Position numbers and translations under genes: made by a program
In this document: in pieces, positions 3,092-27,118 of the stretch
Layout: each line of letters starts with the position of its first letter
Numbering within the stretch: the first letter of the stretch is position 1
Origin: Frankiales bacterium
GTDB taxonomy: Bacteria > Actinomycetota > Actinomycetes > JAFAQI01
Reading direction: 5' to 3'
Assembly: GCA_025980325.1 (NCBI GenBank)
Contig: JAICXQ010000001.1
Location: 12,232-76,231 of the forward strand
DNA length: 64,000 nt
The notes under the pieces: generated by a model
The model's input: the letters and a program-made list of their open reading frames with translations, nothing else
Told to the model about the DNA's origin: nothing
Databases searched by the model: none

Positions 3092-4056
3092 CGGCCCAGG
3101 CGGCGCCGCCTAGCGGATTCTCCGTAGACCCGTGGGACCCGGGGTACGGCCTGGCGTTCAGCAGTGACCTCGATGGCGGTGCGTTGGAGGAATCGAGCGC
3201 GCAGCTCAACCTCGCGGTGGAAATGCCGGCAGACGCGTGGGCTCCCGTCGATCCTGACCCGACCGTCGCGGTGCCGGACACGATCCTGTTCCTCGACGGC
3301 GTGCGCCGCATCGACGCTCGGGTCTGGGTCTACGGGAGTGACCCGCAGCCGGCGCCCGGCATCGCAGCGTCTTTCGCGGCGGGACTCGTCTGCTGCGACG
3401 GCGCGGCTCGCATTGTGGACGTTAGGGTCGGCCGCGGCCTCTTCACCGCCGCATCCGTGGCCGACATCGTTACCCGACAGGCGACTTATCCCGTTCGCGC
3501 CGCAACCGGAGGCAGTCTTGACGAGTTGTCGCTAGCCCTACAGCAGCGGCTTGCCGAGGCAGAAGTTGGGCTCGCGCTCGACTTTCGCGCTACCCACGCC
3601 ATCGGTGACGACCTGCTCGTCGTAGACGGTCCGTTACGCGGACGGACGCACCTGCCTCGCACAGTCGGCTACGTCAAGACTCACCACACTGCCTACCTAC
3701 CTGCGACACAAGCGGCAGTAGTAGCCGAGCTCGCGCCCGGTCAGCGGACCCCAGTGTTTTCAATGGGCACATCCTGGATCCGAAATTCTTGGTATCTGAG
3801 ACTGCCCGGCGCATCGGGTGCCCCGTGGTCCGGGGTCGTCCGCGTCGAGTGTTCTGCCGACCTCTCGCCAGTCGAGGCGGTACGGCTCGCTGCGGTCACC
3901 GCCACTGTCCTGCCGCCGCTAGCCAGCGCACCGCACAAGGACCCACGCGCGCCGCAGAACCTCGTGCCGATTGGCGGACTCGAGCGTGAGTTGCGGCATC
4001 GGCTGGGTGACACGCGACTGCTTTATCGAGCGTTGCGAGCCGCGGCAGCAGGCTAG
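3088..4056 (+). CDS. NurA-like (RNase H-fold) nuclease-domain protein, putative (322 aa)
   Basis: The GTG start overlaps the sbcC stop (GTGA at 3088-3091). Contains the motifs ILFLDGVRRID and LLVVDGPLRG, reminiscent of the paired DG(S)/DGsL acidic motifs of NurA 5'-3' nucleases. The ORF is protein-like, but the function is inferred from motifs only. Confidence 0.45.
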   Translation: MTAQAAPPSGFSVDPWDPGYGLAFSSDLDGGALEESSAQLNLAVEMPADAWAPVDPDPTVAVPDTILFLDGVRRIDARVWVYGSDPQPAPGIAASFAAGLVCCDGAARIVDVRVGRGLFTAASVADIVTRQATYPVRAATGGSLDELSLALQQRLAEAEVGLALDFRATHAIGDDLLVVDGPLRGRTHLPRTVGYVKTHHTAYLPATQAAVVAELAPGQRTPVFSMGTSWIRNSWYLRLPGASGAPWSGVVRVECSADLSPVEAVRLAAVTATVLPPLASAPHKDPRAPQNLVPIGGLERELRHRLGDTRLLYRALRAAAAG

Positions 4057-4117
4057 TGCCCCCGCGGAGCTCGGCACGCGGCGTGACAATCCCCGCCGGC
4101 GCGCGAGGCAAGGAATT

Positions 4118-9422: not shown

Positions 9423-10631
9423 TCAGGGAGTGCGGGCCGGGGCGAGCCCCTGCCCGCAGGACGCGCGGCCCGCGACGTGTAAGTCAATGGAAAGTGTCCC
9501 GGTCTGCCATGCGATCGCGCCGGGCGAGCCGTTTCTACTGTGCGACCGCCCCGGCATAAGGTTGTCGAGGACAGCCGCAGTTTCCTGCAGGTGCTCCGGA
9601 AACAGGTGGCCGTAGGTGTCCATCGTCTCGACGATGGACTTGTGGCCGAGCCGGGCCTGGATGACCTTTGGGTGGAGCCCGGCGGCGATTAGGGACGACG
9701 CGTAGGTGTGCCGCAGCGCGTGCATGCCGTACTCCTGCGGGAGGCCGGCGCGGCGTAGTGCGGGTTTCCAGACAGAGTCGTTGAACGACCCGCGGCGCCA
9801 GACTTCGCCGCGCGGGTTGGTGAACAGCAGGCCGTCCTCGCCAGTGCCGTACCGCTCGATGTGTGCGGCGAGGGCGTCGACGACGAACTTCGGCAACGGC
9901 AGCAATCGGCGCGACGACGGGGTCTTGAGCCGGTCGCTGATGACAGGAACCCCGCCGCCCATCGGTGTCTTGGCCTGCGCCTCGACCCACAGCTCGCGGC
10001 GCAGGAAGTTGACCGCTCGCAGCCGCACTCCGAGCAGCTCGCCCTGGCGCATGCCGGTGCCGACGCCGAGCGCAAGGATCGCGTAGTGGTCCGGCCGGGC
10101 CTCGAGCAGCAAGGACCCGACCTGCTCCGGCGTGAGGATCGACAGCTTCGACGGCGGGATTGCAGGCAGGTTGATCTTGAAGCACGGCGTCGTCGTGAGC
10201 AGCCGGTCATACACCGCCGAGCGCAGCATCATCGCGAGCAGCGCGTAGATGTGCCGGACCGTGCGCGGCGCGAGTCCCTTGCCGACGAGCGTGCCGACGA
10301 ACGCGTTGATGTCCGTGCGCCGCAGCGACGACATCGCGCGGCCGCCGAGGTGGGGGAGGACCTGGCACTTCAAGTAGGTGTTGTAGCCGGCGAGGGTGGA
10401 CGGCTCGACCCGCAGCGACGCGAGCCACGCCGGTGCGTACTCGGCGATGGTTATCCGCGCGTCGCCGCGGAACACGTACGTGCCGTCGATCGCGGCGACC
10501 TGCGCGCGGGCGAGCGCCTGCTCGGCGAGCTTCAGAGTGGAGAACCGCTTGCGGACCATCCGGCCCTCGACGCGGTAGGTGATCTCGTAGGAGAAGCCGC
10601 GCCCGTGGGTGATCTTGCGGGGTCGAGCCAT
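9423..10631 (-). CDS. int: Tyrosine recombinase/phage-type integrase (402 aa)
   Basis: N-terminal SAM-like domain with the catalytic domain carrying the R..HxxR..Y residues (HALRHTYAS, LGHKS, MDTYGHLF). Lies in the lower-GC islet. Confidence 0.9.
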   Translation of the reverse strand: MARPRKITHGRGFSYEITYRVEGRMVRKRFSTLKLAEQALARAQVAAIDGTYVFRGDARITIAEYAPAWLASLRVEPSTLAGYNTYLKCQVLPHLGGRAMSSLRRTDINAFVGTLVGKGLAPRTVRHIYALLAMMLRSAVYDRLLTTTPCFKINLPAIPPSKLSILTPEQVGSLLLEARPDHYAILALGVGTGMRQGELLGVRLRAVNFLRRELWVEAQAKTPMGGGVPVISDRLKTPSSRRLLPLPKFVVDALAAHIERYGTGEDGLLFTNPRGEVWRRGSFNDSVWKPALRRAGLPQEYGMHALRHTYASSLIAAGLHPKVIQARLGHKSIVETMDTYGHLFPEHLQETAAVLDNLMPGRSHSRNGSPGAIAWQTGTLSIDLHVAGRASCGQGLAPARTP

Positions 10632-11241: not shown

Positions 11242-14200
11242 ATGGTCTTCAGGGGGGATGTTCTCGTGATCCGGTCGAGGAAACCGCATTCACGTACAGT
11301 CGCGAATCGCGCCGTCGCACAGGCGATCGGCAAGACTCTTTTGGCCTTCACCGTCGGCGTGTCGGCGACGGTCGTGTCGGCACCGCTCGCCGCCGCGTCC
11401 ATCCCGACCACGGTCCCGCAACTGCAGCCGGTCGACGGCGAATCGCTGGCGGACACGAATAGCGGCGCGGATGCTATCGCTGCATCCGCCACGTCGTCCG
11501 GGTTGACCGAACGGCCGGACACGTGGATGCAGACGAGTCGCACCTTCACCGCCGCAAATGGAATTAACACGACGGTGATCGGTCTCACTCCGCTCAACTA
11601 CCAGGACGCGGGCGCCACGTGGCAGCCGATCGACGACGAGCTCACTGCGGACACGACGACGGGCTATGCGTGGCGTAACACCGCCGACGCCTACAGCGTC
11701 GAGTTCCCGGCGAACCTTCTGTCCGGGCCGATAAGGGTCAGCAACAACGGCGGTTGGGTCGCGTTCCAGATCGCCGGTGCGACCGGCGCAGGTGTGGTGA
11801 GCGGCAACACAATCACGTATGCGAACGCGCTGCCGGGTGTGTCACTGACTTACGCGGCGACTCCGCTCGGGTTGAAGGAGACGATGACGCTGGCGGACGC
11901 GTCGGCCTTGTCCGCGTTTACCGTCGTCGTGACCAGCAGCGACGGGCTGACGACCGCGACCCAGGTCGACGGGAGCACCGGCTTCGTCAACGCGACCGGC
12001 GATCTGATCGCGTCACTCGCGAAGCCGTGGATCACCGACGCGAACCAGGACATGAGCGGCCTCGACGACGCACTCTCGTCGTCGTTGACGCCGGACGGGA
12101 CGAACGCGTGGCTGGACGCGCTCACGGTGTCCGCGACCTGGTTGACCGCACCGAGCCGCTCGTGGCCGGTCACCATCGACCCCACGCTGAAGACCGAGCA
12201 GGACTTCTCGACCGACTGCCTGATGTTCTCCGGTCACCCGACGAGTGGTGTGTGCGCTCAGAATCCGGCCGGCGTGGGTTACCACGCCGACGATTCGCTC
12301 ATCCGCCGCGACGTCATGGAGTTCTCGGTGTCGTCGATCCCGTCCTCCGCCACGGTCACGGACTCGGAGCTCGAGCTCGACGAGGGGCTCACCGCCTATG
12401 GCCCGGTCGAGCTCCAGATCTACCGGAACGATCAGAGCTTCAGTGCGGTGAACGCCACCTGGGACGACGCCGATGCGCATACGGGAACGGCCTGGATCTC
12501 GACCGGGCGTGGCGGCGACCCGGTCGGCAGCGCTTTGATATCGACTCCGTTCGGGTGCGACCCCACCGGCCCGAGTTGCGCCGGCGTGAAGACGTTCAAC
12601 ATCGCCGGCGCGACCCAGAACTGGGTGAACGGGACGTGGGCGAATACCGGCATCCTCTTGCGCGAACAGGTCGAGACCAATGACGGCGTCGTGCAGTTCA
12701 ACGGCAGCAATTCCCCGACCGGCCCGCCGAACATCGTGGTGACGTGGGATCGCAACCCTGACCAGCCGACCCTCGTATCGCCCGCCTCGGGTGCGACCGG
12801 CCTGTCGCCGAGCCCATCGCTGCAGGCGAACGTCACCGACCCGGATGGCGGCGACCTGTACGCGAGGTTCTTCGTCCGCACGCACGGATCGAGCACCTGG
12901 GACATTGCGAACGGCGTCATCATGCCGGCACCGAACGCCGACGACTCGAACGGCGTGGCCTCCGGCGCGACCGTGACGTACTCGCCGTCCCTCTCGCCCG
13001 GCGTGACCTACGACTGGACCGCACAGACGTGGGACGGGACGCTGTTCTCGACGACACCGACGGCGCAGTCGTTCACGGTCGCGCCGCTGCCGCCGCAGCC
13101 GACCGTGTCGAGCTCGACTCATCCGAGCCCCGGCACCTGGTACACCGCTCGTAACGCGACGTTGAACTGGAGCGCGGGCAGCGGGATGACGGGATACTCC
13201 TACGTTCTCGATCAGCCCGGGTCCGGATCGACCACGTGTCCGAGCACGACACCGGATACGACATCGGAAGGCACCGCGACCACTGTTTCGTACGCGAACC
13301 TCGCCGACGGCATCTACTGCTTCCATGTGCGCGCCCAGAACATCTCCGGTTGGGGGCCGGCGTCCAACACCTTCGAGATCGACATCGACGGCACGACACC
13401 GGGCGCGCCGAGCGCAGTGACCTCGACCCCGGCACCGAACAGCAACGGATGGATCACCTCCGGCAACTTCACAATGAACTGGTCCGTGCCGACGCAGACG
13501 CAGGTCTCGGGGATCGCCGGCTACTCGTACGTCCTCGACCAGCCGGCGATCGGCAACACCTGCCCGCCGACGATTCCCGACACGACATCGGAAGGCGCCG
13601 CCGCGTCCGTGAGCTACACGGGCAAGGCAGACGGTGCGTGGTGCTTCCACGTCCGCGCCGAGAGCGGCGCCGGGCTGTGGGGCCCGGCGGCGCACTACAC
13701 GGTCAGCATCGACGCAACGCCGCTCACGGCACCGCAAAACCTCACCTCGAACCCGGCGCCGAACGCGACCGGATGGCTGACGATGAACAGCCCCACCATG
13801 ACCTGGTCGGCTCCGGCCAGCACCTCGGGGGTCACCGGTTACTCGTACGGCCCGCTCGATCATCCCGCGTCCGGTTCGACCACCTGTCCGACCACGGCTC
13901 CCGATACGACATCGGAGGGCACGGCCACCAGCGTTTCGTACAGCAATCTCGCCGACGGCATCTCGTGCTTCCACGTCCGCGCAGAGAACGCGGCAGGTGT
14001 CTGGGGTGACACCGCGCACTACACGTTGCGCATCGACAGCGTCGCCCCGACATCGCCGGCGAACCTGACGACGACTCCGTCCGCGGACGGGCTGTCCCAC
14101 GCGACCCGCACCATCGCCGCATCGTGGAGCGCGGGAACCGATGCCACGTCCGGCGTGGCCGGTTACTACTACACGTTCGACAACGTCGCGACCCGTCCCG

Positions 14201-17200
14201 CCAACACGCCGTTGTCTGCGGACACGTTCACGGCGACGACGACGGCGACGCTGTCGAACTCGACGGACGGTGTGTGGTACGTCCATGTGCGCACGATCGA
14301 CGCGGCCGGCAACCTCAGCGGTTACGCCAACTACGGCCCGGTGATTCTCAACAACGTCAGTCCGATCATCAACAAGACGCTCAACACAGCGGCGGCGAAC
14401 GGCTACTACGGGCGCGGCCAGTACCTCCAATACACGGTGACGGTGACCAACCCGTCGACCCTTGCGCCGTCGACGATCACTGGCTTCAGCGACACTCTCC
14501 AGCCGGGTCAGCTCCTGATCGGCACGGACATCCTGCTCAGCCGCTCCGACGACGGAAGTACCGCGGCGCGCCACTGCCTGCGGATCACCGGATCCGAGCA
14601 GTGCACGATCAGCACCGATGGGACGACGATCACGCTGCCGAACTTCACCCTTCCGGCCGGCGTCTCGCTGCAGCTCGTCTACACCACGCTCGCGACCGGG
14701 GTGGAGAACGGCTGCATGATCACGTCGAACACCGCGACCGCAGCCGATGCCGCGGGCAGCGCGACCACGAACCCGGTTTCCGCCACCATCTGTGACACCG
14801 GTCTCGGAATCGAGCCCTGGTGGAGCTATGTCTCGACCGCGGTCGGGCCTCAGTCGACCGCGCAGGTCAACGTCGCCAACGGCAACCTCGTCGTGCAGGC
14901 GACCGACTCCACCCCGATCAACGCGCACGGTCGCCTCGGTTACGTGATCCGCCGTACGTACAACAGCCAGGACACGACCGCGCTCACGCTGCCCGGAAGC
15001 CTCGGCGCGGGCTGGCAACTCAACGTCGGCGCGACCGACGATCTCGCCGGCGCCGGCGTGACGCCGACGAGCCTGTCGGTCCCGACCGCCAACAGCGTCG
15101 CGGCACCGCTGGGGATCACACTTATCGACCGTGACGGCACCAGGCACGTCTTCACCTACCGCAGCGCGAGCGTCGCGATCACGTCGCCGGTCGACGTGAC
15201 CTCACTCGCCGGCGGATCGCCGATCCATCAACTCGTGCCGGTGAACCCGCTGCTGCGTCCGTCGAGCCTGAGCGGGTCGGCAGCCTTCGCCCACGTGTGC
15301 GTCGACGCGACCTACCAAGCACCTGCGGGCGTACACCTCGCATTGTGGCGTTACGTCGGCACCAACGGCAGCACCTGCTCCGCTGCGCTCAATGATTCGA
15401 ACGCGCGGATCCTCGGCTTCACGACGATGCGCCCGGACCGGCTGCGCTCCGAGTTCGACGCCGCCGGTCACCTGCTCGACCTCGTCGACGGTTCCGGCGT
15501 CGACCTCCGCTACGCGTACGGCACGACCGGCGAGCTCAGGTCGATCAGCGAAGCACGTGACTGCACCGGCGCGGTCGGCACCGCGACGTGTCGTGGCGTC
15601 GTCGTCACGTACTCGAGCGACCAGACGAACGCGTGCCCCATTCCGGCCGGCGCGGCGAGCAGCGAGTGCGTCATCGATCCGGCCGGCCGTCGCACGATTT
15701 ACGCGTTCGACAACGCCGTTCCGAAGCATCTGGTCGAGGTCGACAACCCGGACGACAACCCGTCCGGCACCCGGGACCGCTTCCAGTACGCCTATCAGGG
15801 TTTCGGGGCGAGCTGTGGCGCCGCCGCGGCCGGTCAGCTGTGCACCGTCGTCGAACCGCGCTTTGACCCGAAGACCGGTGCTGTGATCAGCACGACGTTC
15901 GGATACACCGCGCAGAGCCCGCTCGGCCTGCCACGCGTCACGTCCATCACCGACCGCCGCCATGTGATGACGACGCTGGCCTACACCGGCGCGCCGTCGA
16001 CCGCTACGACCGTGGACGACAACGGTGAACGGACGAGTTACCTGTCGATCGACTCCAGCGGCCGGGTCGGCGAGGTCGACCAGGGGGCCACCACCGCGAG
16101 CCCGCTGAGCATCACCCGCTACACCTGGGACACCGCAGCCAATCCCTGCACGTACGTCTCCGGCACGGTGCAAGGCACACACACGGCGTGGGCCAGGCCG
16201 GACAACAACCTGTGCCGGGTGACGAGAGCGCACATCAGCGGGGCGTCGGACGAAACCACGTCGTTCGCCTATACCCCGGAAGGGATGCTGCTCACGTCCC
16301 GGCAGGTCATGTCGTCCGGGCCGGACCTCTACCGCACCTACGCTTACGCGACGCAGTATGTCCGCAACGGAAGCGCCACGATCACCGCGACGGACTCGGT
16401 GTCCGGCAGCGGCGACGTCGCCGTCGGCAACCGGTCGAGCGCCATCGGCGACGGTGGCTCGGTGGCCGGCGACTCCTCGGTCGTCTATGCACTGACCGAC
16501 CTCGTCGCAAGCTTGTCACCGCGCGGCAACGTTGCCGGTGCGACGGTTGCCAACTTCCGCACGGATTACACGGTCGCGGACAGCACTGCTGCCGAACCCG
16601 ACGTGAACCCCGGCGGCAACGCCTGCACGGCACGCAACAGCGGCTCGGTCTGCACCGTGTCCGCGCCGTACTCCGGATCCTCCAAGAGCATCACGCAGTA
16701 CGACTACGACAGCTTCGGGCAGAAGGTCAGCGCGACAGTTCCCAAGCTCTCCTACGAAACCCCGCCGAGCGGGCAGACCTACCAGTACACCTACACCTAC
16801 TACGCCGACAGCTCGACCGACCACGAGACGCACAAGACCAGCATGGGCGGATGGCTGGAAGCCGTCACCGACCCGGCCGGCCACTACGTGTTCTTCACCT
16901 ATGACGCGGCCGGCGATCGCACCCGCACGTGGGACCGCAACGCAACCACGGCGAGCGGCGATTCGCTTTCGGCGATGGAGGCGGCGGTCGCGACCGGTTC
17001 CGGGCCGGTCGGCGCTTCGGTGACCTTGTACGCAAACCCGTTCAACTCGATGCCGTGGCGCTACCTGCTCCTCACCGAGGAACCCGTCGGCCCGCTCACG
17101 ACCTATGCGGTCGATGTCGACGGCAACGTGACGGCAATTACGACGAACGCGGGCCACACGACGACACAGACGTTCGACGAAGCGGGCAACCTGCTCACTC

Positions 17201-20200
17201 GTACGACGCCGGCGGAGCCGGGACACCCGACGACGAACACCTACGATGCGTTCGGGAACCTCGCCACGACCACGAGCCCGAACAACGTCGTCACTGCGTA
17301 CCGCTACGACGCACTCAACCGTCGGGTGACGACGTACACCGACCGGGGTAGCGCAAGCAGCGGCACGTCCAACCCGGGCGGCGGCTGCTTCGTGACCGAC
17401 ACCGGTGCGAACGCGGTCCCCGAGTACGCGGTGAACGAGGTCGTCTGCGCCGCTCGTGCGAGCTACGACGAGTTCGGCAACATGGTCTCGAGCACCGACG
17501 GCGCGAACCACACCACGACGTACACGTACGACACCGCGAACCGTCGGGTCGACACGTTGACGCCGCGGACCGACACAGTCAGCTACACCACGCGCACGCT
17601 CTACGACGCCGACGGCGACGCGATCGACACGTGCCCGCCACGCCAGTTCACCGACGGCGGGGCGTCGACGTGCTCCGACACCAGCCCCGGCGTCTACAGC
17701 ACCCATCGAAGCTTCAGTGAAGCGGACCGGTTGCTGACGACGACGACATATCGCGCGCGGCCGACCTCCGTGCACGGCGACCCGGCGAACACGCCGGCAA
17801 CGAGCACCGACACCACGACGTACACGTACGACGCCGACGGCAACCGGACCAGCGTCGCCGACCCCAACAATCATGTGACGACGGACGTGTACGACTTCCT
17901 CGACCGCAAGACCAGCGAGCTGACGCCGCGGACGAGTGGAGTCAACAAGCGCACGGTGTACACGTACGACGCGAACGGCAACGTGCTCAGCACGACCGCG
18001 TCGGGCCTCGCGCCGGTGAACGTCGGGGGCACCCCGCTCAATGTCGGCAGCCCGTACTCCGCGTCGAACCCCTATCCGCTGCCGGCCGACGTGACGACCT
18101 ACAGCTCGATCACACTGACCGGCGGCGCCTGGATCACCGTGCCGGCGAACAGCGCGCCGGCCGCGATCAGCATCACCGTCTCGTCGACCCTGTCGATCTG
18201 CAGCACCTGCGGCATCACTCTCGACGGTGACGGCTGGGCCGGCGGCACCCCGGCGGCAAGCGCCCTGACAACGGACGGATTCACGGTGAGCGGGAGTGGC
18301 AGCGGGCCCGGCGCCGGCGCGGGCGGTACCAGCGCGGCGACGGCCGGCGGTGGCGGCGGAGGCGCCGGCTACTCGGCGGCGGGGACCGACGGCTTCGGTG
18401 GCGGCAGCCCCCTCGGCGGCGCGGGTGGCAACGCCGGCTCGCCGTACGGCGACGCGACCATCGGCGGTGAGACGTCCACTCAAGCCGGCTCGGGCGGCGG
18501 CGCGGGCGGCACGATCGAGCCGTCGACGCTCGGAGGCGTGGGTGGTGCCGGCGGCGGCATCCTGCACGTGACGGCGAACCAGATCATCCTCGACGGTTCG
18601 ATAACGGCACGCGGCGCGAACGGTGCGGACGGCCAGGTCGTCCAAGGCGCGCTCGGTGCGGGTGGCGGCGGTGGCGGCTCGGGTGGCGCGATCTGGCTGA
18701 GCGCCCCGCAGATCATCACCGACTCCGGCTCGATCGGTCACGTCGACGTCAGCGGCGGTGCCGGTGGCAGCGGCACTCCGGGTGGCACTGACGGCTCGGG
18801 CGGCGCGGGTGCGCCGGGTCGGGTCCGGTTCGACACCGACGAGCTCAGCAGCAGCATCGTGACGACCGCCGGGTCGACGCAACGGACGACGTTCGGGCGG
18901 ACCACCGCGTACAGCTACGACTTCGACAACCGGCTCGTCGACACTGTGATCGGCGCGTCGTCGCCGAACGCGGCGGCCGACGGTCCGACCGGCAGCGACG
19001 GCGGGTCCAACGTGCGCACCCGACTCGTCTACGACGACGAGGGGAACGTCGTGGGCCGCTTCGACCCGCGTGCCTTTGCGGCGTCGGTGACGAGCCCGGA
19101 CGTGCGGTACGAGTCGGTTGCGGTCTACGACGCCGACCATCGGCTGACCGACGTCTACCAGCCGTACAGCGACTCGAGTGGCGCGTCCGATCCGAACGGT
19201 GCCCCGTCGCAGTGTCCGGACGCGGCCAGTCTCGGGATCAGCGCCTATCAAGGCCTGACCGGTGTGCACGTCTGTCGTCTGCACTACGGGTACGACCACG
19301 ACGGCAACCGCACACTGACGCAGCTGCCGACGTACGACAGCAGCGACACGACCCGGGTGTACACGGCTGCTTACACTCCGGACGACCTGCTCGCGTCGAC
19401 GAGTGTGCCGGACCCGTCGGTGACGAGTCATGCGGCTGCACTCCGTGCGGAGGCATACACCTATGACGGTGCCGGCCGCCGCCTGACCGACCAGGAGTTG
19501 CCGGACACCGGTGGCCCGACGACCACGACGACGTACACCGCTGACGGCTTGGTCGCCACGGTGACGCCGCCGACGGGCGGCGCGAGCCATCTGACGACGT
19601 ACGGGTACGACCCGAACGGCGCGCAGGTGAGTGTGACGATGCAACAGGACGCGTCGACCACCCGGACGAGCTTCACCGACTACAACAGCGACGGCAGCGT
19701 CTATGCGAACGTCGACCCGGCCGGAAATACGACGAGCTACACCTATGACGCGGCGGGCAACCAGATCGCGGTCTATGGCCCGTCGGCGAATGCCGGCGAT
19801 GCGACCAACCCGAACCACCTGCCGACGGTGTATTCGTACTTCGACGACAACTTGCTCGCGACGACCTCGACGCCGACGGTGTCCAGTGGTGCGACTCGCC
19901 GCCTGACGACGTACGGCTACAACCTGGGCGGCGACAAGACCAGCGTCGACGTCGACTACACCAACGCGAGCGGGACAGTGACGACCGACGGTGCTCCGCA
20001 GCGTTTCGGGTACTACCCGGACGGGCGGATTGAGTCGTCAACCGGCCGCAGCGGCGGGTCGCAGGCGTTCAGCTACGACGCGGCCGGGCACCCGTTGTCG
20101 AGCAGCGACACGGCGAACGGCGACACGGTCACGACCGCCGCGACGTATTACCTGGACAACGCCATCCGCACGGTGAGCGAGTCGGGGACTGTGGTTCCGA

Positions 20201-22401
20201 CGTCGTCGACGACGTACAGCTACGACGCGGCCGGCTCGGTCGATCTGCGGCAAAGCCAGGTGGGGACATCGACGACCTCGACGTCGTTTGCGTACACGGA
20301 CAACGAGCAATTGGCGAATGTGGCCGGCGGTGTGACCGGCACGACGATCACGCTTGTGTATGACTCGCAGGGTCGGCCAACGACGACGAACTACGCGTCG
20401 GGTGTGGCGTTGACGCGGACATGGAACGCCGACGACACACTCGCGAGCCAATCGTTGGCGACCAACGGCAATTCGAGCAACTGGGCGTACGCGTATGACG
20501 GGATGTCCCGCGTGACGGCGGCGGACAACACCTCCGGCGCGACGAGCACGGATTGCACCGCTGCGACTCTGCCGAACGGTTTGCAGTGCTTCACCTACGA
20601 CGCGGCCGGCCGGTTGCATTCGTTTGCCGACAGCCAGGCGAGCCGGACGGCGACTTACGACGCGGACGGAAACCGGTTGAGCTATGGCGACGCGGCGCAC
20701 CCGTCGGTCGCGCCGGTGGTGACGGCGAACTACAACCCGGACGACTCGATTCACGACCAGAAGGTCGGGTCGGGGACGGACAACGTGTATGTGTACGCGC
20801 TGCCGTTCGGTGGGGTGACATCGGACGGGTGCAGCACGTATGCGTACGACGGGTTCGGCCGGCTCTCGTCGGTGACCGGTTCCGGCGGGAGCGGCTGTAC
20901 GTCGAACGTGTCGTACACCTATGACGCCCTGGATCGGCAGGTGCAACGCAACGAGACCGGCTCGAACGCGGTCCGTGGTGGCGTGACGAACCTGGCGTAT
21001 GACGGATTGGCCATGACGTTGACGAGCGAGTCGCTGCCGTCGAGTGGCGGGCTGACGCGTTACACGTTGGACGGCGCGGGTGCGGCGTGGGCGGTGACGA
21101 ACAGCTCGACGAACGGGCAGACGCAGTACCTCGCCGACGACGGGCAGGGCAACGTGACTAACCCAGTCACGGCCAGCAGCGGCAACCTCGCGTGCGGGTT
21201 CCGCTACGACCCGTGGGGCAGCGCGCTGACGACGAGCCTCAGCGTCACACCCACGTGCACGTCGGGCAACACGCCGACCGACCTGCAGTACCGCGGCGAG
21301 GCAAAGGATCCGACGACCGGCACTTACCAGCTTGGGTCCCGCACCTACGACCCGGCGAAGACCGGCTTCCTCAATCCAGACAGTTACCGCAATGCGCCGT
21401 CGTCGGGCGACCTCAGCATCGGCACCGATCCGCTCACCCGCGACAGCTACAACTACGTCAACGGCGACCCGATCAACCTGATCGATCCGAGCGGCCACAT
21501 GAACGAAGCGGAGGGTGGCGGCGGCTGCGGGAATCTGCGGATGCGGACGTGTCGCTTGGTGGAGCAGTACAACTACTACCTGGTTGAGAAGGAGCTGATC
21601 CGCCAGCACGATGCGTACTACGCGGCGGTCGGGGAGCGTAAGCAGTGCGTTGAGCATCGCTGCGGCGGGGTCAACGACCCGAGTGCCGCGGCTGCGTACT
21701 CGAAGTCGATGCTGGAGATCCTCAACGGTGCTGCTTATCAGGGCGATATCAACAGTCCGTGGGTCAAGACCCTCGATCCGCTAGTCCAGTCGTTCTGGCA
21801 GCAAGCCAAACCCAGCTTCGAAGGCGTCGTTACCGAGGACGACACGGTTCAAGGGATCATCGACACCATCGCCACGCTCGGCATCGCCGCACCCGAAGAA
21901 GCCGCCGTCAGCGCCGGCGAGACCGCAGCTAAAGAGGTCACTGAGCAAGCGGTGAAGGCCGCCGCGCGAGTAACCGTCGATGACGCCGCCCCACAAGCAG
22001 CGCGAGACGCCGTAAGCATGGAAGAGGACCTGGTTGCCTCCGGTCGTAGCTTCGGGCCCGGCGCTGCCCACGTTGATGACCCGGCGTTCTCCCCGGCCTT
22101 CTACCGAGGAGCGCCGCCCGGCGAGAATCCAAGCTTCACTCTGAAGCCGGGCGAGTATCGAGTCACTGGGGCCAGCCAAGTTCGAGGGTTGTCTGTCTTC
22201 AACAACCCCGAAGCCGTCGCGTCAAGGGGTATGGTCCCGTTTGAGGTCGACCAGTCGACCGTCTCTGATGCTCTGAGCATCGAGCAGCGCGGCGGCAACC
22301 TGGAGCACTTCGAGATCGTGCCGGCCGGGGGCGCATTTCCGCCGCAGAACGAGTTCCAATCACTACTCGATGAGATCGAAGTGTTCGGTGGAGGTGAATG
22401 A
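11242..22401 (+). CDS. rhs: Giant Rhs/YD-repeat polymorphic toxin (3719 aa) with signal peptide, four Ig/Fn3-like repeats, YD repeats, a Gly-rich insert and a C-terminal toxin domain
   Basis: N-terminal signal peptide (alternative GTG start at 11266 with a GGGGGG RBS). Many YxYDxxGN(R/L) repeats (YTYDANGNV, YTYDADGNR, YSYDFDNRL and others). Core end motif DPLTRDSYNYVNGDPINLIDPSGH at about aa 3395, followed by about 310 aa of C-terminal domain. Confidence 0.9.
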   Translation: MVFRGDVLVIRSRKPHSRTVANRAVAQAIGKTLLAFTVGVSATVVSAPLAAASIPTTVPQLQPVDGESLADTNSGADAIAASATSSGLTERPDTWMQTSRTFTAANGINTTVIGLTPLNYQDAGATWQPIDDELTADTTTGYAWRNTADAYSVEFPANLLSGPIRVSNNGGWVAFQIAGATGAGVVSGNTITYANALPGVSLTYAATPLGLKETMTLADASALSAFTVVVTSSDGLTTATQVDGSTGFVNATGDLIASLAKPWITDANQDMSGLDDALSSSLTPDGTNAWLDALTVSATWLTAPSRSWPVTIDPTLKTEQDFSTDCLMFSGHPTSGVCAQNPAGVGYHADDSLIRRDVMEFSVSSIPSSATVTDSELELDEGLTAYGPVELQIYRNDQSFSAVNATWDDADAHTGTAWISTGRGGDPVGSALISTPFGCDPTGPSCAGVKTFNIAGATQNWVNGTWANTGILLREQVETNDGVVQFNGSNSPTGPPNIVVTWDRNPDQPTLVSPASGATGLSPSPSLQANVTDPDGGDLYARFFVRTHGSSTWDIANGVIMPAPNADDSNGVASGATVTYSPSLSPGVTYDWTAQTWDGTLFSTTPTAQSFTVAPLPPQPTVSSSTHPSPGTWYTARNATLNWSAGSGMTGYSYVLDQPGSGSTTCPSTTPDTTSEGTATTVSYANLADGIYCFHVRAQNISGWGPASNTFEIDIDGTTPGAPSAVTSTPAPNSNGWITSGNFTMNWSVPTQTQVSGIAGYSYVLDQPAIGNTCPPTIPDTTSEGAAASVSYTGKADGAWCFHVRAESGAGLWGPAAHYTVSIDATPLTAPQNLTSNPAPNATGWLTMNSPTMTWSAPASTSGVTGYSYGPLDHPASGSTTCPTTAPDTTSEGTATSVSYSNLADGISCFHVRAENAAGVWGDTAHYTLRIDSVAPTSPANLTTTPSADGLSHATRTIAASWSAGTDATSGVAGYYYTFDNVATRPANTPLSADTFTATTTATLSNSTDGVWYVHVRTIDAAGNLSGYANYGPVILNNVSPIINKTLNTAAANGYYGRGQYLQYTVTVTNPSTLAPSTITGFSDTLQPGQLLIGTDILLSRSDDGSTAARHCLRITGSEQCTISTDGTTITLPNFTLPAGVSLQLVYTTLATGVENGCMITSNTATAADAAGSATTNPVSATICDTGLGIEPWWSYVSTAVGPQSTAQVNVANGNLVVQATDSTPINAHGRLGYVIRRTYNSQDTTALTLPGSLGAGWQLNVGATDDLAGAGVTPTSLSVPTANSVAAPLGITLIDRDGTRHVFTYRSASVAITSPVDVTSLAGGSPIHQLVPVNPLLRPSSLSGSAAFAHVCVDATYQAPAGVHLALWRYVGTNGSTCSAALNDSNARILGFTTMRPDRLRSEFDAAGHLLDLVDGSGVDLRYAYGTTGELRSISEARDCTGAVGTATCRGVVVTYSSDQTNACPIPAGAASSECVIDPAGRRTIYAFDNAVPKHLVEVDNPDDNPSGTRDRFQYAYQGFGASCGAAAAGQLCTVVEPRFDPKTGAVISTTFGYTAQSPLGLPRVTSITDRRHVMTTLAYTGAPSTATTVDDNGERTSYLSIDSSGRVGEVDQGATTASPLSITRYTWDTAANPCTYVSGTVQGTHTAWARPDNNLCRVTRAHISGASDETTSFAYTPEGMLLTSRQVMSSGPDLYRTYAYATQYVRNGSATITATDSVSGSGDVAVGNRSSAIGDGGSVAGDSSVVYALTDLVASLSPRGNVAGATVANFRTDYTVADSTAAEPDVNPGGNACTARNSGSVCTVSAPYSGSSKSITQYDYDSFGQKVSATVPKLSYETPPSGQTYQYTYTYYADSSTDHETHKTSMGGWLEAVTDPAGHYVFFTYDAAGDRTRTWDRNATTASGDSLSAMEAAVATGSGPVGASVTLYANPFNSMPWRYLLLTEEPVGPLTTYAVDVDGNVTAITTNAGHTTTQTFDEAGNLLTRTTPAEPGHPTTNTYDAFGNLATTTSPNNVVTAYRYDALNRRVTTYTDRGSASSGTSNPGGGCFVTDTGANAVPEYAVNEVVCAARASYDEFGNMVSSTDGANHTTTYTYDTANRRVDTLTPRTDTVSYTTRTLYDADGDAIDTCPPRQFTDGGASTCSDTSPGVYSTHRSFSEADRLLTTTTYRARPTSVHGDPANTPATSTDTTTYTYDADGNRTSVADPNNHVTTDVYDFLDRKTSELTPRTSGVNKRTVYTYDANGNVLSTTASGLAPVNVGGTPLNVGSPYSASNPYPLPADVTTYSSITLTGGAWITVPANSAPAAISITVSSTLSICSTCGITLDGDGWAGGTPAASALTTDGFTVSGSGSGPGAGAGGTSAATAGGGGGGAGYSAAGTDGFGGGSPLGGAGGNAGSPYGDATIGGETSTQAGSGGGAGGTIEPSTLGGVGGAGGGILHVTANQIILDGSITARGANGADGQVVQGALGAGGGGGGSGGAIWLSAPQIITDSGSIGHVDVSGGAGGSGTPGGTDGSGGAGAPGRVRFDTDELSSSIVTTAGSTQRTTFGRTTAYSYDFDNRLVDTVIGASSPNAAADGPTGSDGGSNVRTRLVYDDEGNVVGRFDPRAFAASVTSPDVRYESVAVYDADHRLTDVYQPYSDSSGASDPNGAPSQCPDAASLGISAYQGLTGVHVCRLHYGYDHDGNRTLTQLPTYDSSDTTRVYTAAYTPDDLLASTSVPDPSVTSHAAALRAEAYTYDGAGRRLTDQELPDTGGPTTTTTYTADGLVATVTPPTGGASHLTTYGYDPNGAQVSVTMQQDASTTRTSFTDYNSDGSVYANVDPAGNTTSYTYDAAGNQIAVYGPSANAGDATNPNHLPTVYSYFDDNLLATTSTPTVSSGATRRLTTYGYNLGGDKTSVDVDYTNASGTVTTDGAPQRFGYYPDGRIESSTGRSGGSQAFSYDAAGHPLSSSDTANGDTVTTAATYYLDNAIRTVSESGTVVPTSSTTYSYDAAGSVDLRQSQVGTSTTSTSFAYTDNEQLANVAGGVTGTTITLVYDSQGRPTTTNYASGVALTRTWNADDTLASQSLATNGNSSNWAYAYDGMSRVTAADNTSGATSTDCTAATLPNGLQCFTYDAAGRLHSFADSQASRTATYDADGNRLSYGDAAHPSVAPVVTANYNPDDSIHDQKVGSGTDNVYVYALPFGGVTSDGCSTYAYDGFGRLSSVTGSGGSGCTSNVSYTYDALDRQVQRNETGSNAVRGGVTNLAYDGLAMTLTSESLPSSGGLTRYTLDGAGAAWAVTNSSTNGQTQYLADDGQGNVTNPVTASSGNLACGFRYDPWGSALTTSLSVTPTCTSGNTPTDLQYRGEAKDPTTGTYQLGSRTYDPAKTGFLNPDSYRNAPSSGDLSIGTDPLTRDSYNYVNGDPINLIDPSGHMNEAEGGGGCGNLRMRTCRLVEQYNYYLVEKELIRQHDAYYAAVGERKQCVEHRCGGVNDPSAAAAYSKSMLEILNGAAYQGDINSPWVKTLDPLVQSFWQQAKPSFEGVVTEDDTVQGIIDTIATLGIAAPEEAAVSAGETAAKEVTEQAVKAAARVTVDDAAPQAARDAVSMEEDLVASGRSFGPGAAHVDDPAFSPAFYRGAPPGENPSFTLKPGEYRVTGASQVRGLSVFNNPEAVASRGMVPFEVDQSTVSDALSIEQRGGNLEHFEIVPAGGAFPPQNEFQSLLDEIEVFGGGE
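13090..14360 (+). repeat. Four in-frame tandem repeats of about 285 nt (95 aa) encoding Ig/Fn3-like modules within the Rhs N-terminal region
   Basis: Repeating consensus G(Y)SYVLDQPxSGSTTCPxTxPDTTSEGTAxSVSYxNLADGxxCFHVRAxNxAGxWGxxAHYTxxID, seen four times. Confidence 0.6.
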
Positions 22402-22727
22402 TGGTCGGCGAGACGGTCTATGTGACTGCTAAAGCTGTCCGATGGGTCAGCGATGACCCCGTCCCGGGCATCGTTGAGGTCCAGGTCGTAGATGGGCACG
22501 GCAAGGCTTGGTCCTTTATAGACAAGGCACCGATGTTCGAGGAGGGCAACAAACTCACTCGTACGACCGCGTATCCCACGGAGATCGAGTTGGCGTGCAC
22601 CGTCGTCGGATCCAACAGCGACGGGATCGTTGTCTCGACCGCAAGGCCCTGGGGGATCGAAACAATCGATGGGGTGTCTCAGTTTACGTTGGCCCCCGCG
22701 CAAGTTCATGGTCGAGCCGCTATGTGA
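22398..22727 (+). CDS. Putative cognate immunity protein for the Rhs C-terminal toxin (109 aa)
   Basis: Its start overlaps the rhs stop (ATGATGG at 22398-22403). It is small and has no detectable motifs. The position is typical for Rhs immunity genes. Confidence 0.5.
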   Translation: MMVGETVYVTAKAVRWVSDDPVPGIVEVQVVDGHGKAWSFIDKAPMFEEGNKLTRTTAYPTEIELACTVVGSNSDGIVVSTARPWGIETIDGVSQFTLAPAQVHGRAAM

Positions 22728-23619
22728 ATCCCTGACGCGGTGATCGATCGCCAGGCGTCTTGCCGCGTACTCACGGCGTCCCGCCTCGGGTTCCGCGGAC
22801 GGCCGGTGACGACGAACTACCGGACCGGCGTCACACTGGACCCTGATGTGGAAACAGGGAGGTCCATTTCATCGAAGGCTTGAAGGGAACACTTGCACTT
22901 CGAAATGACTGAGCCGAATTCTTAGCAGCGCGGGACCAAGTTCTGCGCGGTGCGCCGATCTTCAAGGGCGGCAACGTTAACAGCCTGCCGCCCGAGCAGT
23001 CGCAATTCGTTACATTCGAGAGTCCGGACGGACGCGGAAGCGCCAATTGAGGCGATAATGCGGGGGCCTGGTTCAGTTGCACGGCTGGTGCGCACCCGAG
23101 GCCCGGCTACGACGGGAGTGACGTTCGCTTCCGTGTAGCCATGGCACGAGGTCGCGACATGACACTGCGTACACGCTTGCGGTATTCCGGGTGCCTACGC
23201 GAGCGGGATGGCGTCCTACGATCGGACCGGAACCGGTCGCGCCAGCTCGCTCTTGTGATCGACGCTCACCGGTTCGAGCAATTTTGGCGTACGCCTACGA
23301 CGGCGTGTTCAGCGCAACGGTGGCGGAGAACACCTCGGGTCGCGACGAGTGCGGATTACCCGTCCGGCGGGCCCGCCGGACGGGTTGGAATGCTTCAGCT
23401 AGGACGCGGTGGGACGAGTGCACACGTTTACCAGCGGTGGGCGCCCTGGACGGTGTCGTATGACGCGGAGCGGAACTGGTTGCTCTCGACCAAGTGAGCT
23501 AACTTACGCACCAACCGGCAACGAGCACGGCGCCCATCCGCCTCAACTCGGGCGAGTCTTAGGCCCACTCGGGTGCAGAGGAAGCGGCGTTGCAGTCAGG
23601 AGTCGTACGTCCAATACCT

Positions 23620-24107
23620 TGATGCCTTCGACCAACTGCGAGCGGTGGGAAGAATTAGTGCCTCCTAACCATGAAGCCCCCCGCATCGAAATGATCGATG
23701 GTCTTGACGCGACCCGACGTCTCGAAGAGTGGTATTTCGGTATAGGCGGGTTCTCGCCCGAACGCGCTGTGGAGTTCATCCGTGAGGAGGCGGCGCTGTG
23801 CGGTGTAGGTGAGATTCGCGTCACACGTCGAGGAGCATGGTGGGTGATCGATTCGGAGGAAGATTGGCTTCCACGAGCCAATGACGGACTAGATGCGTTC
23901 CACGCTCTACTCCGTTACCCGGAAGGCGGCGTCAACGGTGCGCGAACCGAAGCGCTGCTAACCGCGTTTGCGACGGTACTTATCACCGCCAAGCGTGACA
24001 GGTCATGGGTCATCGTCGAATCTCGGGATCGTGCATGCCGCTGGATTCGTCGTCACGGTGACGAAATGTCGATGCATGCGCGAACCATCGCATTCGCCAC
24101 GATCTAG
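23620..24107 (+). CDS. Hypothetical small protein in a low-GC spacer; possible orphan immunity protein
   Basis: Protein-like segment MIDGLDATRRLEEWYFGIGGFSPERAVEFIREEAALCG... within ORF 23409-24107. The start is uncertain (ATG about 23620, GTG about 23659 with a ggaag RBS, or ATG about 23691). Confidence 0.3.
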
Positions 24108-24450
24108 CGCTAGCTGTCCTGACCAAGGACGTTGCTGGCCGTGGTCATGCGGCGGGCCGGGTGATCTCGAGGCGGGCCGAGCACCTCGAAGGACGGTCCG
24201 CATTGACCTTGTGGACGCTCTCGAATCCAACCCCAACACTAACGGCCCGAAATGAATGAGCGTAGTTAGCAGAGGCCCCGGCGATGACGGTTCTAGGACT
24301 GGCTCAACGACCTCACGATACGCGACCTGATTGTTGCGCGCGAACCGCGATTTGGCCCCTTAGGAGCGTTCTGATCTTCGTCGTTCGGATGCCGAGTTTA
24401 TGTACTCTGATCCAAGGAGCCACCGACCAGGCTTGCCCTGAACGTGATGA

Positions 24451-24549
24451 GTGAGTCGCTGCAACATCGGTACCGACCCACTGACCCGCGACACCTATAA
24501 CTACGTCAACGGCGACTCGATTAACCTCACCGATCGCAGCGGGCACGCG
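24451..24549 (+). pseudogene. Orphan Rhs core-end fragment (displaced C-terminal tip)
   Basis: Encodes IGTDPLTRDTYNYVNGDSINLTDRSGH, about 81% nt identity to 21418-21500 of the main rhs. The frame degenerates immediately after SGH, and the downstream protein-like frame is shifted by +1. Confidence 0.6.
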
Positions 24550-24550
24550 G

Positions 24551-25321
24551 GTCGACGTGCATCTCAGACGGATGTTGACAGCATGTGCGCCGGCTACTCG
24601 GGCGCTGGCCCAAAGGCACACCTTGAAGCGCGTCGCGGCCATCGTCGACGAAATCACAGACGTTCTCGTATACGGGCCACAAGTCGAGCGGCTCCTGAAA
24701 GGAAAGTCACGTCGTCCTGCTGATAAGGCGAAACTAAGTGCCATCGGTTACTGCATGTGTCTTCCCGCAGATTTTTGGACCCCTAATTGGTCGTGGCAGA
24801 TGCGGCTGGCGTACCTCGACGACCCGAACCAACTCACCGACGAGAACATCCTCTTCGCGGCCGGCGAGCGAGACGCGGTGGACCCGCATGCCGTCGCGCA
24901 CGTGCTCGAAACCGGGTTCTTGGCTCTTGCGGCCGTCGCGGCGGACGATCCAGAAGAAGGCGCGACGACGGTCGACCCATTCACTGACGACGCCAAGCTA
25001 GTCGACGCCGATCTTGCTGCCGCCGAACGCCACCTGGCGATGATTCCTGACGCGCTCCAGTACGGTCCGAACAAGGCGATGCTTGTCAGCATCCGGTCTA
25101 CAAATGCGGCCGACGATGCCTTGTCGGCTGCGCAGCGCACCTTCCTCGATCACGAGTTGCTTGAGGCCGCATTGGTGCGTGGCGGACTATCACAAGAGGA
25201 GGCGCACCAAGCTGTCGTAACCGTCTTTCCGCACGGCTCGAACTATTCTCCCGATGTGATCCGTCAGTTCTCTACGTACTTCAGCGATACGTACTTCAAG
25301 TACTGGGGGATGACTAGATGA
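24551..25321 (+). CDS. Candidate orphan toxin domain (about 255 aa) downstream of the orphan Rhs tip
   Basis: Protein-like ORF (MHLRRMLTACAP...VAAIVDEITDVLVYGPQVERLL...). The frame is open back to 24485 without an ATG, consistent with a former fusion to the Rhs tip. Confidence 0.4.
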   Translation, partial: VDVHLRRMLTACAPATRALAQRHTLKRVAAIVDEITDVLVYGPQVERLLKGKSRRPADKAKLSAIGYCMCLPADFWTPNWSWQMRLAYLDDPNQLTDENILFAAGERDAVDPHAVAHVLETGFLALAAVAADDPEEGATTVDPFTDDAKLVDADLAAAERHLAMIPDALQYGPNKAMLVSIRSTNAADDALSAAQRTFLDHELLEAALVRGGLSQEEAHQAVVTVFPHGSNYSPDVIRQFSTYFSDTYFKYWGMTR

Positions 25322-25857
25322 CAGGCAAGCTGTCCATCGGAGCCTGGGCGGTCGGATGGTCTAACGAGATCGGGCCCTTTCGGGTCGAATCGAGCGCCGA
25401 GCCTCTAGAGTACGTCTGCGCGGCAAGCACTCATGTTGAGGCGGATTCTGCGTCTGTCGCGATCGAGCTTGTACATCGAATCTCGGGCATGCGGCCGCAC
25501 GCATTGCTTGCCGCAACGTACCAGCCGAGCCAAGACGGCCGCCTGGTCGTTCGGGTCGTTCGGGGAGTCGAATTCGATCCTGCAAAAGCGATAGTCACGA
25601 GCCCTCTCGGGCTGAAACTCGCAACCGCCTTGCCGCCGAATCTGGGCGAGGCAGCGGCTGCGGCGTTTCGGTCGGATGAATCCACCGACCTCAACGTGGG
25701 TGGCGTGGTGAATATCGTTGGCGGAGGCATCGATCACGACTCATCGCCGATGGTATTCATGCGATGTGGCGAGATTCTATGCCGTTTTCTCATGGCGGTC
25801 GCCGTGCGACAGAACCCGCGTGTCGCGATTCAATCCCTTGTAAAGTCTTGGGCGTAA
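25318..25857 (+). CDS. Putative immunity protein for the orphan toxin (179 aa)
   Basis: ATGA start/stop overlap with the preceding ORF at 25318-25321. Confidence 0.4.
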   Translation: MTGKLSIGAWAVGWSNEIGPFRVESSAEPLEYVCAASTHVEADSASVAIELVHRISGMRPHALLAATYQPSQDGRLVVRVVRGVEFDPAKAIVTSPLGLKLATALPPNLGEAAAAAFRSDESTDLNVGGVVNIVGGGIDHDSSPMVFMRCGEILCRFLMAVAVRQNPRVAIQSLVKSWA

Positions 25858-26400
25858 CGCAGGTTGATCGGGTCCCCTTGACGTGTCCACCAGGTGCGCG
25901 CTGGTCAACGGCTATTCCCGATCAGTGAGAAGGCGCGGCATGACCAAGCACGATTCATTGTCCGGCTCACACGGCGACGAGATCTTGAGTGCGTGGCGAT
26001 CGGCCGTTGAGAGATTAGCTAGCGATGGCATGGATGACGGGTTCTGCGACTGGCTCAACGACCTGACGTACGGGACCAGATTGCCAGACAGGAAATGTAG
26101 TTCACCGCCAAGGTGCGTTTGCAACTCCGGCGGCTGGACGTCCTGTTCGGCGAATTGACGAACGAGGTTTCCACATCTGTTGATCCTCTTAATGAGAGTC
26201 CGCGTTGGTGGTGGTTCCGTGTCCCGAGAGGGATGACAGCTGACTTCCGCGAAGAGATCAGAACCAGAGGTATATCTGAGATACCAAAAAAGCCCGGATG
26301 ATCGGTAGAGGCCTCTACAACCATGCTGCGATGGCCCGCAGTGGTTGTCGAGATCGGGGACGAGCTAATTCGACCGATAGCGTCGACGTAAAGTTTAGTC

Positions 26401-26751
26401 GTGGCTCACATCGCGTGTCTCTGTGGCCATCAGATCGACATCGGCCACCTTCCGTCGCCGAATGTTTACCACGGGGTGAGCGACTCGTGGTTTAACTTGG
26501 TCACGAATCGACTCGACAGAGCAGACAACTTGTCAAAGGACGATTTCCTCGATGCGCTTGCCTTCGACCTGTTTGGTTCCCGAGGCAAGAGGGCCTTCAG
26601 GCTGTATCCGTGCCGTCAGTGTGGTCGCGTAACAGTCGAAGCGCATGGATTTCGAATCTCTCTCCGAGCGGAGAAGGGCGACGTGCTCGGGTGGATACAC
26701 GACATGGACCTGGACGTGGCGGAGTTTCGCGAGGCCGAGGAAGGCGGCTGA
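26401..26751 (+). CDS. Small Cys-containing hypothetical protein (116 aa; CLCGH ... CRQCG, zinc-ribbon-like)
   Basis: The ORF has lower GC than the flanks. Two CxxC-like pairs are present. Confidence 0.3.
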   Translation: MAHIACLCGHQIDIGHLPSPNVYHGVSDSWFNLVTNRLDRADNLSKDDFLDALAFDLFGSRGKRAFRLYPCRQCGRVTVEAHGFRISLRAEKGDVLGWIHDMDLDVAEFREAEEGG

Positions 26752-27118
26752 GATCAAAGTGGATGCCTGGGATTGGCGCCTGCAGGTCCAAACGACTACG
26801 GAGACAAGCCGCGTGACCAGGCCGACATCCCCCAGCTGTCATTTGGGGCCGGCATGACGGCGAGTGACATGAGTCTCTTTGGAGAACATTCGGCTTACCG
26901 GCGGACTCCGTCCGCGGCCTTGCTCGGATCCGCGCTCACGGAGCGTTTCCGGCGCGGCTGACCGGCCACTTTCGGGTCCCCTTCCCGATCGAACCCGGCC
27001 AGCGCTGGTCGTCGGGCGCCACGGAATCGGGCGGGAAACTTCGGTCCGGACGCTGAAGGCGCCGTCACGCAAACCCGCGAGGCTCGCCGCTGACGCCCTC
27101 AGCACGACAGGAGCAGGG

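Follow-up and report, generated by a model that had tools for sequence, protein, structure and literature searches.

Introduction

That orphan Rhs toxins can be encoded beside a main rhs gene is well established (PMC7043789, PMC10539506), and the rhs-orphan of Salmonella Typhimurium (PMC7043789) as well as the Rhs orphans of Serratia (PMC10539506) are modules lying downstream of the main rhs gene. Here we describe what is probably such a module in a 64,000-nucleotide (nt) stretch of a Frankiales genome (contig JAICXQ010000001.1, positions 12,232 to 76,231 of the forward strand), which at its full length is called the window below and whose own numbering is used throughout. As in the enterobacterial loci, a full-length rhs gene with its own C-terminal toxin region (CT) and immunity gene comes first, then a piece of the 3' end of the core joined to an unrelated CT, and then a further immunity gene. 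Two other systems serve as references for this locus. WapA of Bacillus subtilis is reportedly a Sec-exported, wall-associated YD/Rhs toxin with a polymorphic CT and WapI as its immunity protein, and the C-terminal domains of polymorphic toxins are said to form Ntox/Tox families that are catalogued in Pfam.

We consider it probable that the element is a displaced or imported orphan Rhs-CT/immunity cassette whose toxin has been cut off from its delivery and is likely silent, and whose immunity gene may still protect the cell. A preliminary description of this DNA had proposed an orphan Rhs tip accompanied by a second toxin/immunity-like pair, and the analyses below uphold this identification: behind the full-length rhs gene come a piece of the core tip, a toxin with no relation to the main toxin, and a candidate for its cognate immunity gene. 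This type of cassette is already well known, and what is new about it is confined to the unnamed toxin/immunity family that it carries.

A core-tip fragment downstream of the main rhs gene

The tip repeat was analyzed by blastn on the whole window. Positions 24462-24546 and 21414-21498, the latter being the 3' end of the main rhs core, share 84% identity over 85 nt with a significant E value of 4.6e-21; the value of about 81% over 24466-24545 reported previously was slightly low and essentially right. At the protein level, NIGTDPLTRDTYNYVNGDSINLTDRSGH and SIGTDPLTRDSYNYVNGDPINLIDPSGH are identical at 23 of 28 residues. A search for the 27-nt core of the motif, allowing up to three mismatches, returned only the two tip sites in the window and none in 100 shuffles.

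Just upstream of the repeat the tip frame is closed by stop codons (GLP-stop-T-stop-stop-VSRCN before IGTDPL), and a tblastn search with the 60 main-core residues preceding the tip motif found no similarity before 24462. The cassette is thus devoid of the N-terminal delivery domains and of the YD shell, and keeps 28 core codons. The demarcation motif is itself degenerate in the orphan, which reads GDSINLTDRSGH versus GDPINLIDPSGH in the main gene, with both prolines replaced (GDP to GDS and DPSGH to DRSGH). These prolines are invariant in six related Rhs genes, from Frankiaceae, Angelobacter, Actinomycetota and Dormibacteria metagenome-assembled genomes (MAGs), and the pattern NGDP.N..DP[ST]GH is kept in all six. 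The nearest Rhs relative in the core-end search comes from a Frankiaceae MAG, with 54% identity. Apart from an inverted 25-nt fragment at 25860-25884, the window contains no further orphan tip, and a motif search downstream of the related Rhs genes in loci L010-L019 found none.

Tip and toxin lie in different reading frames

The tip is read in frame 1, which ends at the stop codon 24721-24723, and the protein-like sequence that follows lies in frame 2. The +1 change of frame noted in the preliminary description is borne out by the open frames, by the third-position GC content and by single-base repair. Third-position GC shifts from frame 1 to frame 2 around 24550-24620, indicating that the one-base frameshift most likely sits near 24547-24620; this placement uses third-position GC only. 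Placing it by homology was tried and given up, the linker of the related protein P0060 being unrelated to that of the window and P0002 and L005 being cut by contig ends. Any single-base deletion within 24519-24723 restores one ORF (open reading frame) at 24451-25321, a continuous frame of 290 amino acids (aa). A single indel explains why the CT is not in frame with the retained core fragment. This lack of frame weakens the claim of a functional or swappable cassette and leaves its derivation as an orphan cassette unaffected.

Three dynamic properties had also been proposed for the cassette. Phase variation is not supported, since neither a tandem repeat (Tandem Repeats Finder, 24300-25400) nor a homopolymer of at least 4 bases (24461-24760) occurs where the shift must lie. 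Decay is evident in the tip, with its two replaced prolines, but not in the toxin domain or the immunity ORF, which are both intact. Finally, reactivation through recombination with the main rhs gene appears improbable, given that the homology is limited to 85 nt at 84% identity with mutated prolines and that its longest exact run is 18 nt, shorter than RecA-type recombination usually needs. Moreover, the frameshift lies 3' of the homology, so that a recombinant would still be out of frame and would end in a 58-codon junk tail.

We propose that the cassette was once the 3' end of an rhs gene, in which the core tip would have been followed by a linker of about 150 aa, the 107-aa toxin domain and a translationally coupled immunity gene. 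The present cassette is reduced to its 28 core codons and has no delivery part; in-frame stops lie upstream, the cleavage/demarcation motif is mutated, and a one-base indel puts tip and toxin into different frames. Synthesis of the toxin within an Rhs protein is therefore precluded, and the toxin would most likely be silent. The immunity gene, if transcribed, would guard the cell against neighbours delivering this toxin family.

The toxin domain and its partner ORF

The frame-2 product has no match in Pfam or NCBIfam, and a scan of genome contigs with the toxin profile gave no match. It is unrelated to the main toxin, as had been stated before (best E 1.6 by blastp of the main CT against the orphan). 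A word-indexed search found a handful of relatives; an exhaustive profile search recovered 423 cluster representatives with E <=1e-3, of which 189 reach E <=1e-10. The domain lies at or near the C-terminus of its carriers overall, ending at most one residue from it in 130 of the 155 members retrieved. Its N-terminal partners are varied. According to Pfam, P0131 (2365 aa) is a full-length Rhs protein with RHS_repeat and DUF6531, P0133 is a PT-HINT carrier and P0012 a protein with RCC1 repeats that also has a DPTGL tip. Rhs fragments carry the domain in P0130, P0040, P0015 and P0093. Reading of the sequences added a PT-TG-like carrier (P0006) and two short proteins with their own start codon and a signal peptide followed by a short linker (P0003, 237 aa; P0014, 200 aa). 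Both the C-terminal position and the variety of partners point to the C-terminal domain of a polymorphic toxin. A recognisable Rhs tip is present in 17 members, 147 to 295 aa before the C-terminus, and in the window 257 aa separate DxxGH from the stop. P0060 combines the same tip subtype (DLSVGTDPLTANTYTYVNGNPLNYSDPDGH) with this toxin domain.

The residues conserved across the family are H20-L, N33-x-A-M36, F57-x-x-H60-E61-x-x-E64, G71, A77-H78, Y91-x-P93-E-V and W111-G112. Thirteen positions reach a conservation of at least 90% in the family, and the domain of the window retains them all; it departs notably only at T43 and at D47, the latter position being glycine in 85% of members.

The ATGA overlap between the toxin stop codon and the 179-aa ORF (25318-25857), pointed out in the preliminary description, is present in the sequence. 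A similar arrangement, with an overlapping ORF of 155-179 aa after the toxin, occurs on the P0002 contig, in L001/L004 (one contig), in L005 and in L007, and in L008 the contig ends after 109 aa of the overlapping ORF. In total, five other loci, four of them on distinct contigs, have an overlapping homologue of the 179-aa ORF after the toxin domain. P0007 and the L001 ORF share 42% identity with the immunity ORF of the window, and a local immunity hidden Markov model detects those of L005 (E 3e-12), L007 (3e-5) and L008 (9e-4). An overlapping ORF, of 180 aa, also follows an IS6-truncated copy of the domain on plasmid pOB3b3 of Methylosinus trichosporium, within an array of immunity genes and fragments annotated 'RHS repeat-associated core domain'; this 180-aa ORF shows no significant similarity to the 179-aa ORF of the window. 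Likewise, blastp gave no match between the 179-aa ORF and the 109-aa ORF that follows the main rhs gene. Thus, the second toxin/immunity-like pair proposed earlier holds, since many Rhs, PT-HINT and PT-TG proteins carry the domain as their C-terminal module and the 179-aa ORF accompanies the toxin elsewhere. Judged from sequence, the frame-2 toxin and the 179-aa ORF are a real polymorphic toxin/immunity pair, and conserved synteny supports a putative toxicity of the one and its specific neutralisation by the other. By-eye inspection of the 179-aa sequence revealed neither a signal peptide nor a transmembrane segment, suggesting that the immunity protein is presumably cytoplasmic and that the toxin has a cytoplasmic target.

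Relatives of this toxin were also seen in arrays outside the window. In L001 (6001-8393, ENA k141_4402464), an Rhs gene with a CT that is deaminase-like by inspection (HAE...CPAC) and a gene for a DUF416 protein precede two genes for small toxins. Both have a start codon of their own and encode a signal peptide, an ORF of immunity size follows each of them, and their products share the N-terminal motif TTERGPP. L006/L007 encode similar signal-peptide toxins with the motif F[TA]YDAP..[AT]RVD. These proteins have the appearance of mini-toxins that are exported on their own and encoded in a row behind Rhs genes.

Predicted structure and possible activity

AlphaFold gives a confident six-helix model of the toxin domain, with a predicted local distance difference test score (pLDDT) of 92.9 and a predicted template modelling score of 0.85. 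Foldseek searches of the domain against the PDB and BFVD returned nothing below E 0.7, and Pfam and NCBIfam scans of 42 diverse members, one by one at E <=1, yielded nothing meaningful. The conserved His/Glu/Glu/His/Asn cluster on the predicted helical bundle suggests a metal-dependent hydrolase. With low confidence, we propose that the toxin could be an enzyme acting in the cytoplasm, for instance a nuclease. No activity can be assigned from these searches or from that of a profile of the 42 members against PDB sequences, whose best match had an E value of 0.19, as none of them gave a significant match.

Three known classes of toxin were considered and rejected. For a HEPN RNase (Rx4-6H), ERTFLDH in the close clade fits Rx4H, but the arginine is lost in the wider family (ADASFYLH, ADENFIRH), where only F..HE..E is conserved, and Foldseek matched no solved structure. 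A zincin metallopeptidase would need HExxH, but the motif is HExxE, with glutamate at the second position in 99% of members, and no peptidase of Pfam or NCBIfam is matched. Concerning ADP-ribosyltransferases, the best PDB profile match is the heat-labile enterotoxin A (E 0.19) and one member matches the Pfam family NarE at E 0.18; both values are insignificant and attributable to chance. The model is all-helical, and the domain stops at the C-terminus before the position at which the catalytic glutamate of these enzymes would be needed.

Taken as a whole, the toxin may represent a widespread family of polymorphic toxins that has so far gone undescribed. The family comprises at least 423 clusters (50% identity), ranges from Actinomycetota to Alphaproteobacteria and occurs in Rhs, PT-HINT, PT-TG and signal-peptide proteins; its helical fold could be new, as could its enzymatic activity, which is possibly metal-dependent. 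Its immunity partners, of about 155-180 aa, would likewise form an undescribed family. We put this forward tentatively, as less likely than not.

Weighing of the alternative explanations

Several observations weigh against a silent cassette displaced from the neighbouring gene. The toxin ORF is open over 278 codons with its key residues intact, which is unexpected for a long-silent gene; it may have been inactivated recently, or be expressed from an internal start. P0003 and P0014, in L001 and L006/L007, are complete small genes and not orphans. As for the tip, the main tip shares 82% and 81% identity with tips of other organisms, so that the 84% between orphan and main tip is no higher than what separates organisms. 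Such values point to a constraint on the family, and a recent duplication of the main gene is not proven. The cassette is therefore not shown to have been displaced from this rhs gene in particular, and it may have come with its own tip.

The most serious competitor, which we nevertheless regard as unlikely, is that the frame-2 ORF is a complete gene read from an internal start, GTG 24557 or ATG 24572, and encodes a toxin-antitoxin-like module or an independently exported toxin; the tip would then be a fossil and the frameshift without consequence. Such a gene would account for 278 open codons at about 60% GC, for the retention of all strongly conserved candidate catalytic residues and for the tight ATGA coupling to the immunity gene. 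At 254 aa its product would also be close in size to the stand-alone P0003 and P0014, and from the GTG it begins with MHLRRMLTACAPATRALA-Q, which on inspection only loosely resembles a twin-arginine or Sec leader. Orphan Rhs toxins of Salmonella are indeed functional toxin-antitoxin-like modules using internal promoters and start codons (PMC7043789). In the window, however, inspection found no convincing Shine-Dalgarno sequence before either start, the segment resembling a leader is short, with an arginine in it, and the first 144 aa or so of the 254-aa ORF form a poorly conserved linker with pLDDT <50. Homology to P0002 begins only at about 24749, and the public gene call P0001 (173 aa) starts the ORF at 24803, inside the P0002-homologous region, making the prediction of a start uncertain here. 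The scan of 22300-27000 that found no sigma-70-like promoter is ill-suited to actinobacteria and uninformative.

A sequencing or assembly error at the frameshift would also weigh against our interpretation. The cassette would then be an in-frame orphan tip-CT, still without a delivery domain, and its class would not change. One extra base is enough to explain the shift, short G runs (GCGGGCACGCGGGTC) lie at 24540-24554, and removing one base at the junction gives the continuous sequence ...DRSGHAVDVHLRR.... We think such an error improbable: the zone has no homopolymer of 4 or more bases, and the two replaced prolines together with the upstream stops make a genuine decay of the 5' end likely anyway. 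Still harder to credit, to the point of being nearly negligible, is a junction at which programmed ribosomal frameshifting joins tip and toxin or a phase-variable switch operates. The two frames overlap by about 240 nt and inspection of frame 1 showed a CCCAAAG heptamer at 24609-24615, but this heptamer would give a slip of -1, whereas +1 is required, and the -1 frame meets a stop codon at 24624-24626. For a switch, the absence of repeat tracts and homopolymers noted above applies equally. In addition, the only upstream start of the tip frame is GTG 24451, right after the stops, and a fusion without a delivery domain has no obvious use. The orphan cassette with a probably silent toxin thus remains our preferred explanation.

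Genomic surroundings

The features of the locus are collected in Table 1. The main Rhs protein has an N-terminus resembling a signal peptide, followed by Y_Y_Y and DUF6531 domains and YD repeats. The tip of the core is ...NYVNGDPINLIDPSGH and the core end reads ...DLSIGTDPLTRDSYNYVNGDPINLIDPSGH. Neither its 297-aa C-terminal toxin region nor the 109-aa ORF at 22398-22727 matches any family. GC content is 55-62% across 22200-26800 versus 66-70% in the flanks, and no genes of a type VI secretion system (T6SS) were seen among the neighbouring genes scanned.

Table 1. Features of the main rhs gene and of the orphan cassette in the window.
Feature	Position	Strand	Remarks
Main rhs gene	11242..22401	+	3719 aa; giant Rhs/YD-repeat ORF
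Tip of the rhs core (3' end, SIGTDPLTRDSYNYVNGDPINLIDPSGH), reference copy for the 85-nt repeat	21414..21498	+	
Presumed main-toxin immunity ORF, 109 aa	22398..22727	+	ATGA overlap with the rhs stop codon
29-nt direct repeat, left copy	24289..24317	+	Encodes DWLNDLT
Orphan rhs tip, NIGTDPLTRDTYNYVNGDSINLTDRSGH	24462..24546	+	Frame 1; 2 kb downstream of the main rhs gene
Orphan toxin (Rhs-CT) open frame	24485..25321	+	Frame 2, 278 codons; 254 aa from GTG 24557 (first start codon)
Zone with frames 1 and 2 both open	24547..24723	+	Holds the one-base frameshift
Toxin domain, 107 aa, unnamed family	24998..25318	+	Predicted six-helix bundle
Cognate immunity candidate, 179 aa	25318..25857	+	ATGA overlap with the toxin stop codon; intact
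Inverted 25-nt tip-coding fragment (..QGDPINL..)	25860..25884	-	Immediately 3' of the 179-aa ORF stop codon
29-nt direct repeat, right copy	26040..26068	+	Inside small ORF 25883/25940-26158

Two repeats around the cassette may both be scars of the assembly of the array. The inverted fragment matches 21455-21480 at 24 of 26 positions with one gap (blastn E 3e-4) and may be the scar of a recombination or an inversion. The two copies of the 29-nt direct repeat are 90% identical and bracket the cassette, and the left one lies within a stretch of about 75 nt that contains stop codons and resembles a decayed copy of the small ORF 25940-26158.

Other features of the region were recorded. The YD-repeat region of the main protein contains a glycine-rich insertion (18000-18900, residues ~2250-2550) of 73-77% GC, with runs such as GGGGGGAGYSAAGTDGFGGG... 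and GAGGGGGGSGGAIW. The interval 22730-24110, which separates the orphan tip from the main immunity ORF, comprises about 900 nt of broken reading frames, perhaps pseudogene debris, and then an intact-looking 161-aa ORF (23622-24107) without a family match; frames and ORF together may be the remains of another cassette. A 116-aa ORF at the distal end of the low-GC region (26401-26751) matches no family, and its two cysteine pairs (CLCG...CRQCG) suggest a zinc ribbon. Directly upstream of the rhs gene, a tyrosine recombinase of the phage-integrase family is encoded on the minus strand (9423-10631), and farther upstream (653-7876) an SbcC/AAA_23-type ATPase gene is followed by large ORFs of 322 aa and 1301 aa without family matches. 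The region with the recombinase and the ATPase may be a genomic island or a defence locus; the window contains no tRNA gene.

Comparison with known systems

Orphan Rhs cassettes constitute a stored arsenal of contact-dependent competition, and the cassette of the window adds nothing new in this respect. It is a clear example of an orphan in a high-GC, Sec-type (Gram-positive style) Rhs locus, where such modules have been little studied. Its decay from the 5' end, affecting tip motif and frame, with toxin domain and immunity gene intact, fits a selection on the immunity gene or an internal expression. Furthermore, a toxin/immunity family without a relative in Pfam, NCBIfam or the PDB, with a confident model and a conserved His/Glu/Asn cluster, is a defined target for biochemical and structural work.

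The resemblance to the orphans of Enterobacteria goes beyond the order of the genes described at the outset, since the cassette has a lower GC content and a variable composition and its toxin lacks both shell and delivery part. Unlike in these orphans, the core homology in the window is only 85 nt at 84% identity with a mutated demarcation motif, and tip and CT do not share a reading frame. The host also differs, as it appears to be a high-GC Gram-positive bacterium with a Sec-type Rhs protein, apparently non-T6SS judging by the neighbouring genes scanned. Recombinational activation of an orphan has been shown in Salmonella, in work cited in PMC7043789, whereas it looks unlikely in the window.

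The toxin domain shares with the Ntox/Tox families its extreme C-terminal position, its modular fusion to Rhs, PT-HINT, PT-TG and signal-peptide N-termini and the small immunity gene next to it. It differs from them in that no Pfam or NCBIfam model matches it, the 42 diverse members included. Finally, as in WapA, the main rhs gene of the window encodes a giant YD-repeat protein of the Gram-positive type with a signal-peptide-like N-terminus and, after a DPxG-type motif, a polymorphic C-terminal toxin, with an adjacent presumed immunity gene. The N-terminal domains are different from those of WapA, being Y_Y_Y and DUF6531 in the window, which to such a locus adds an orphan cassette.

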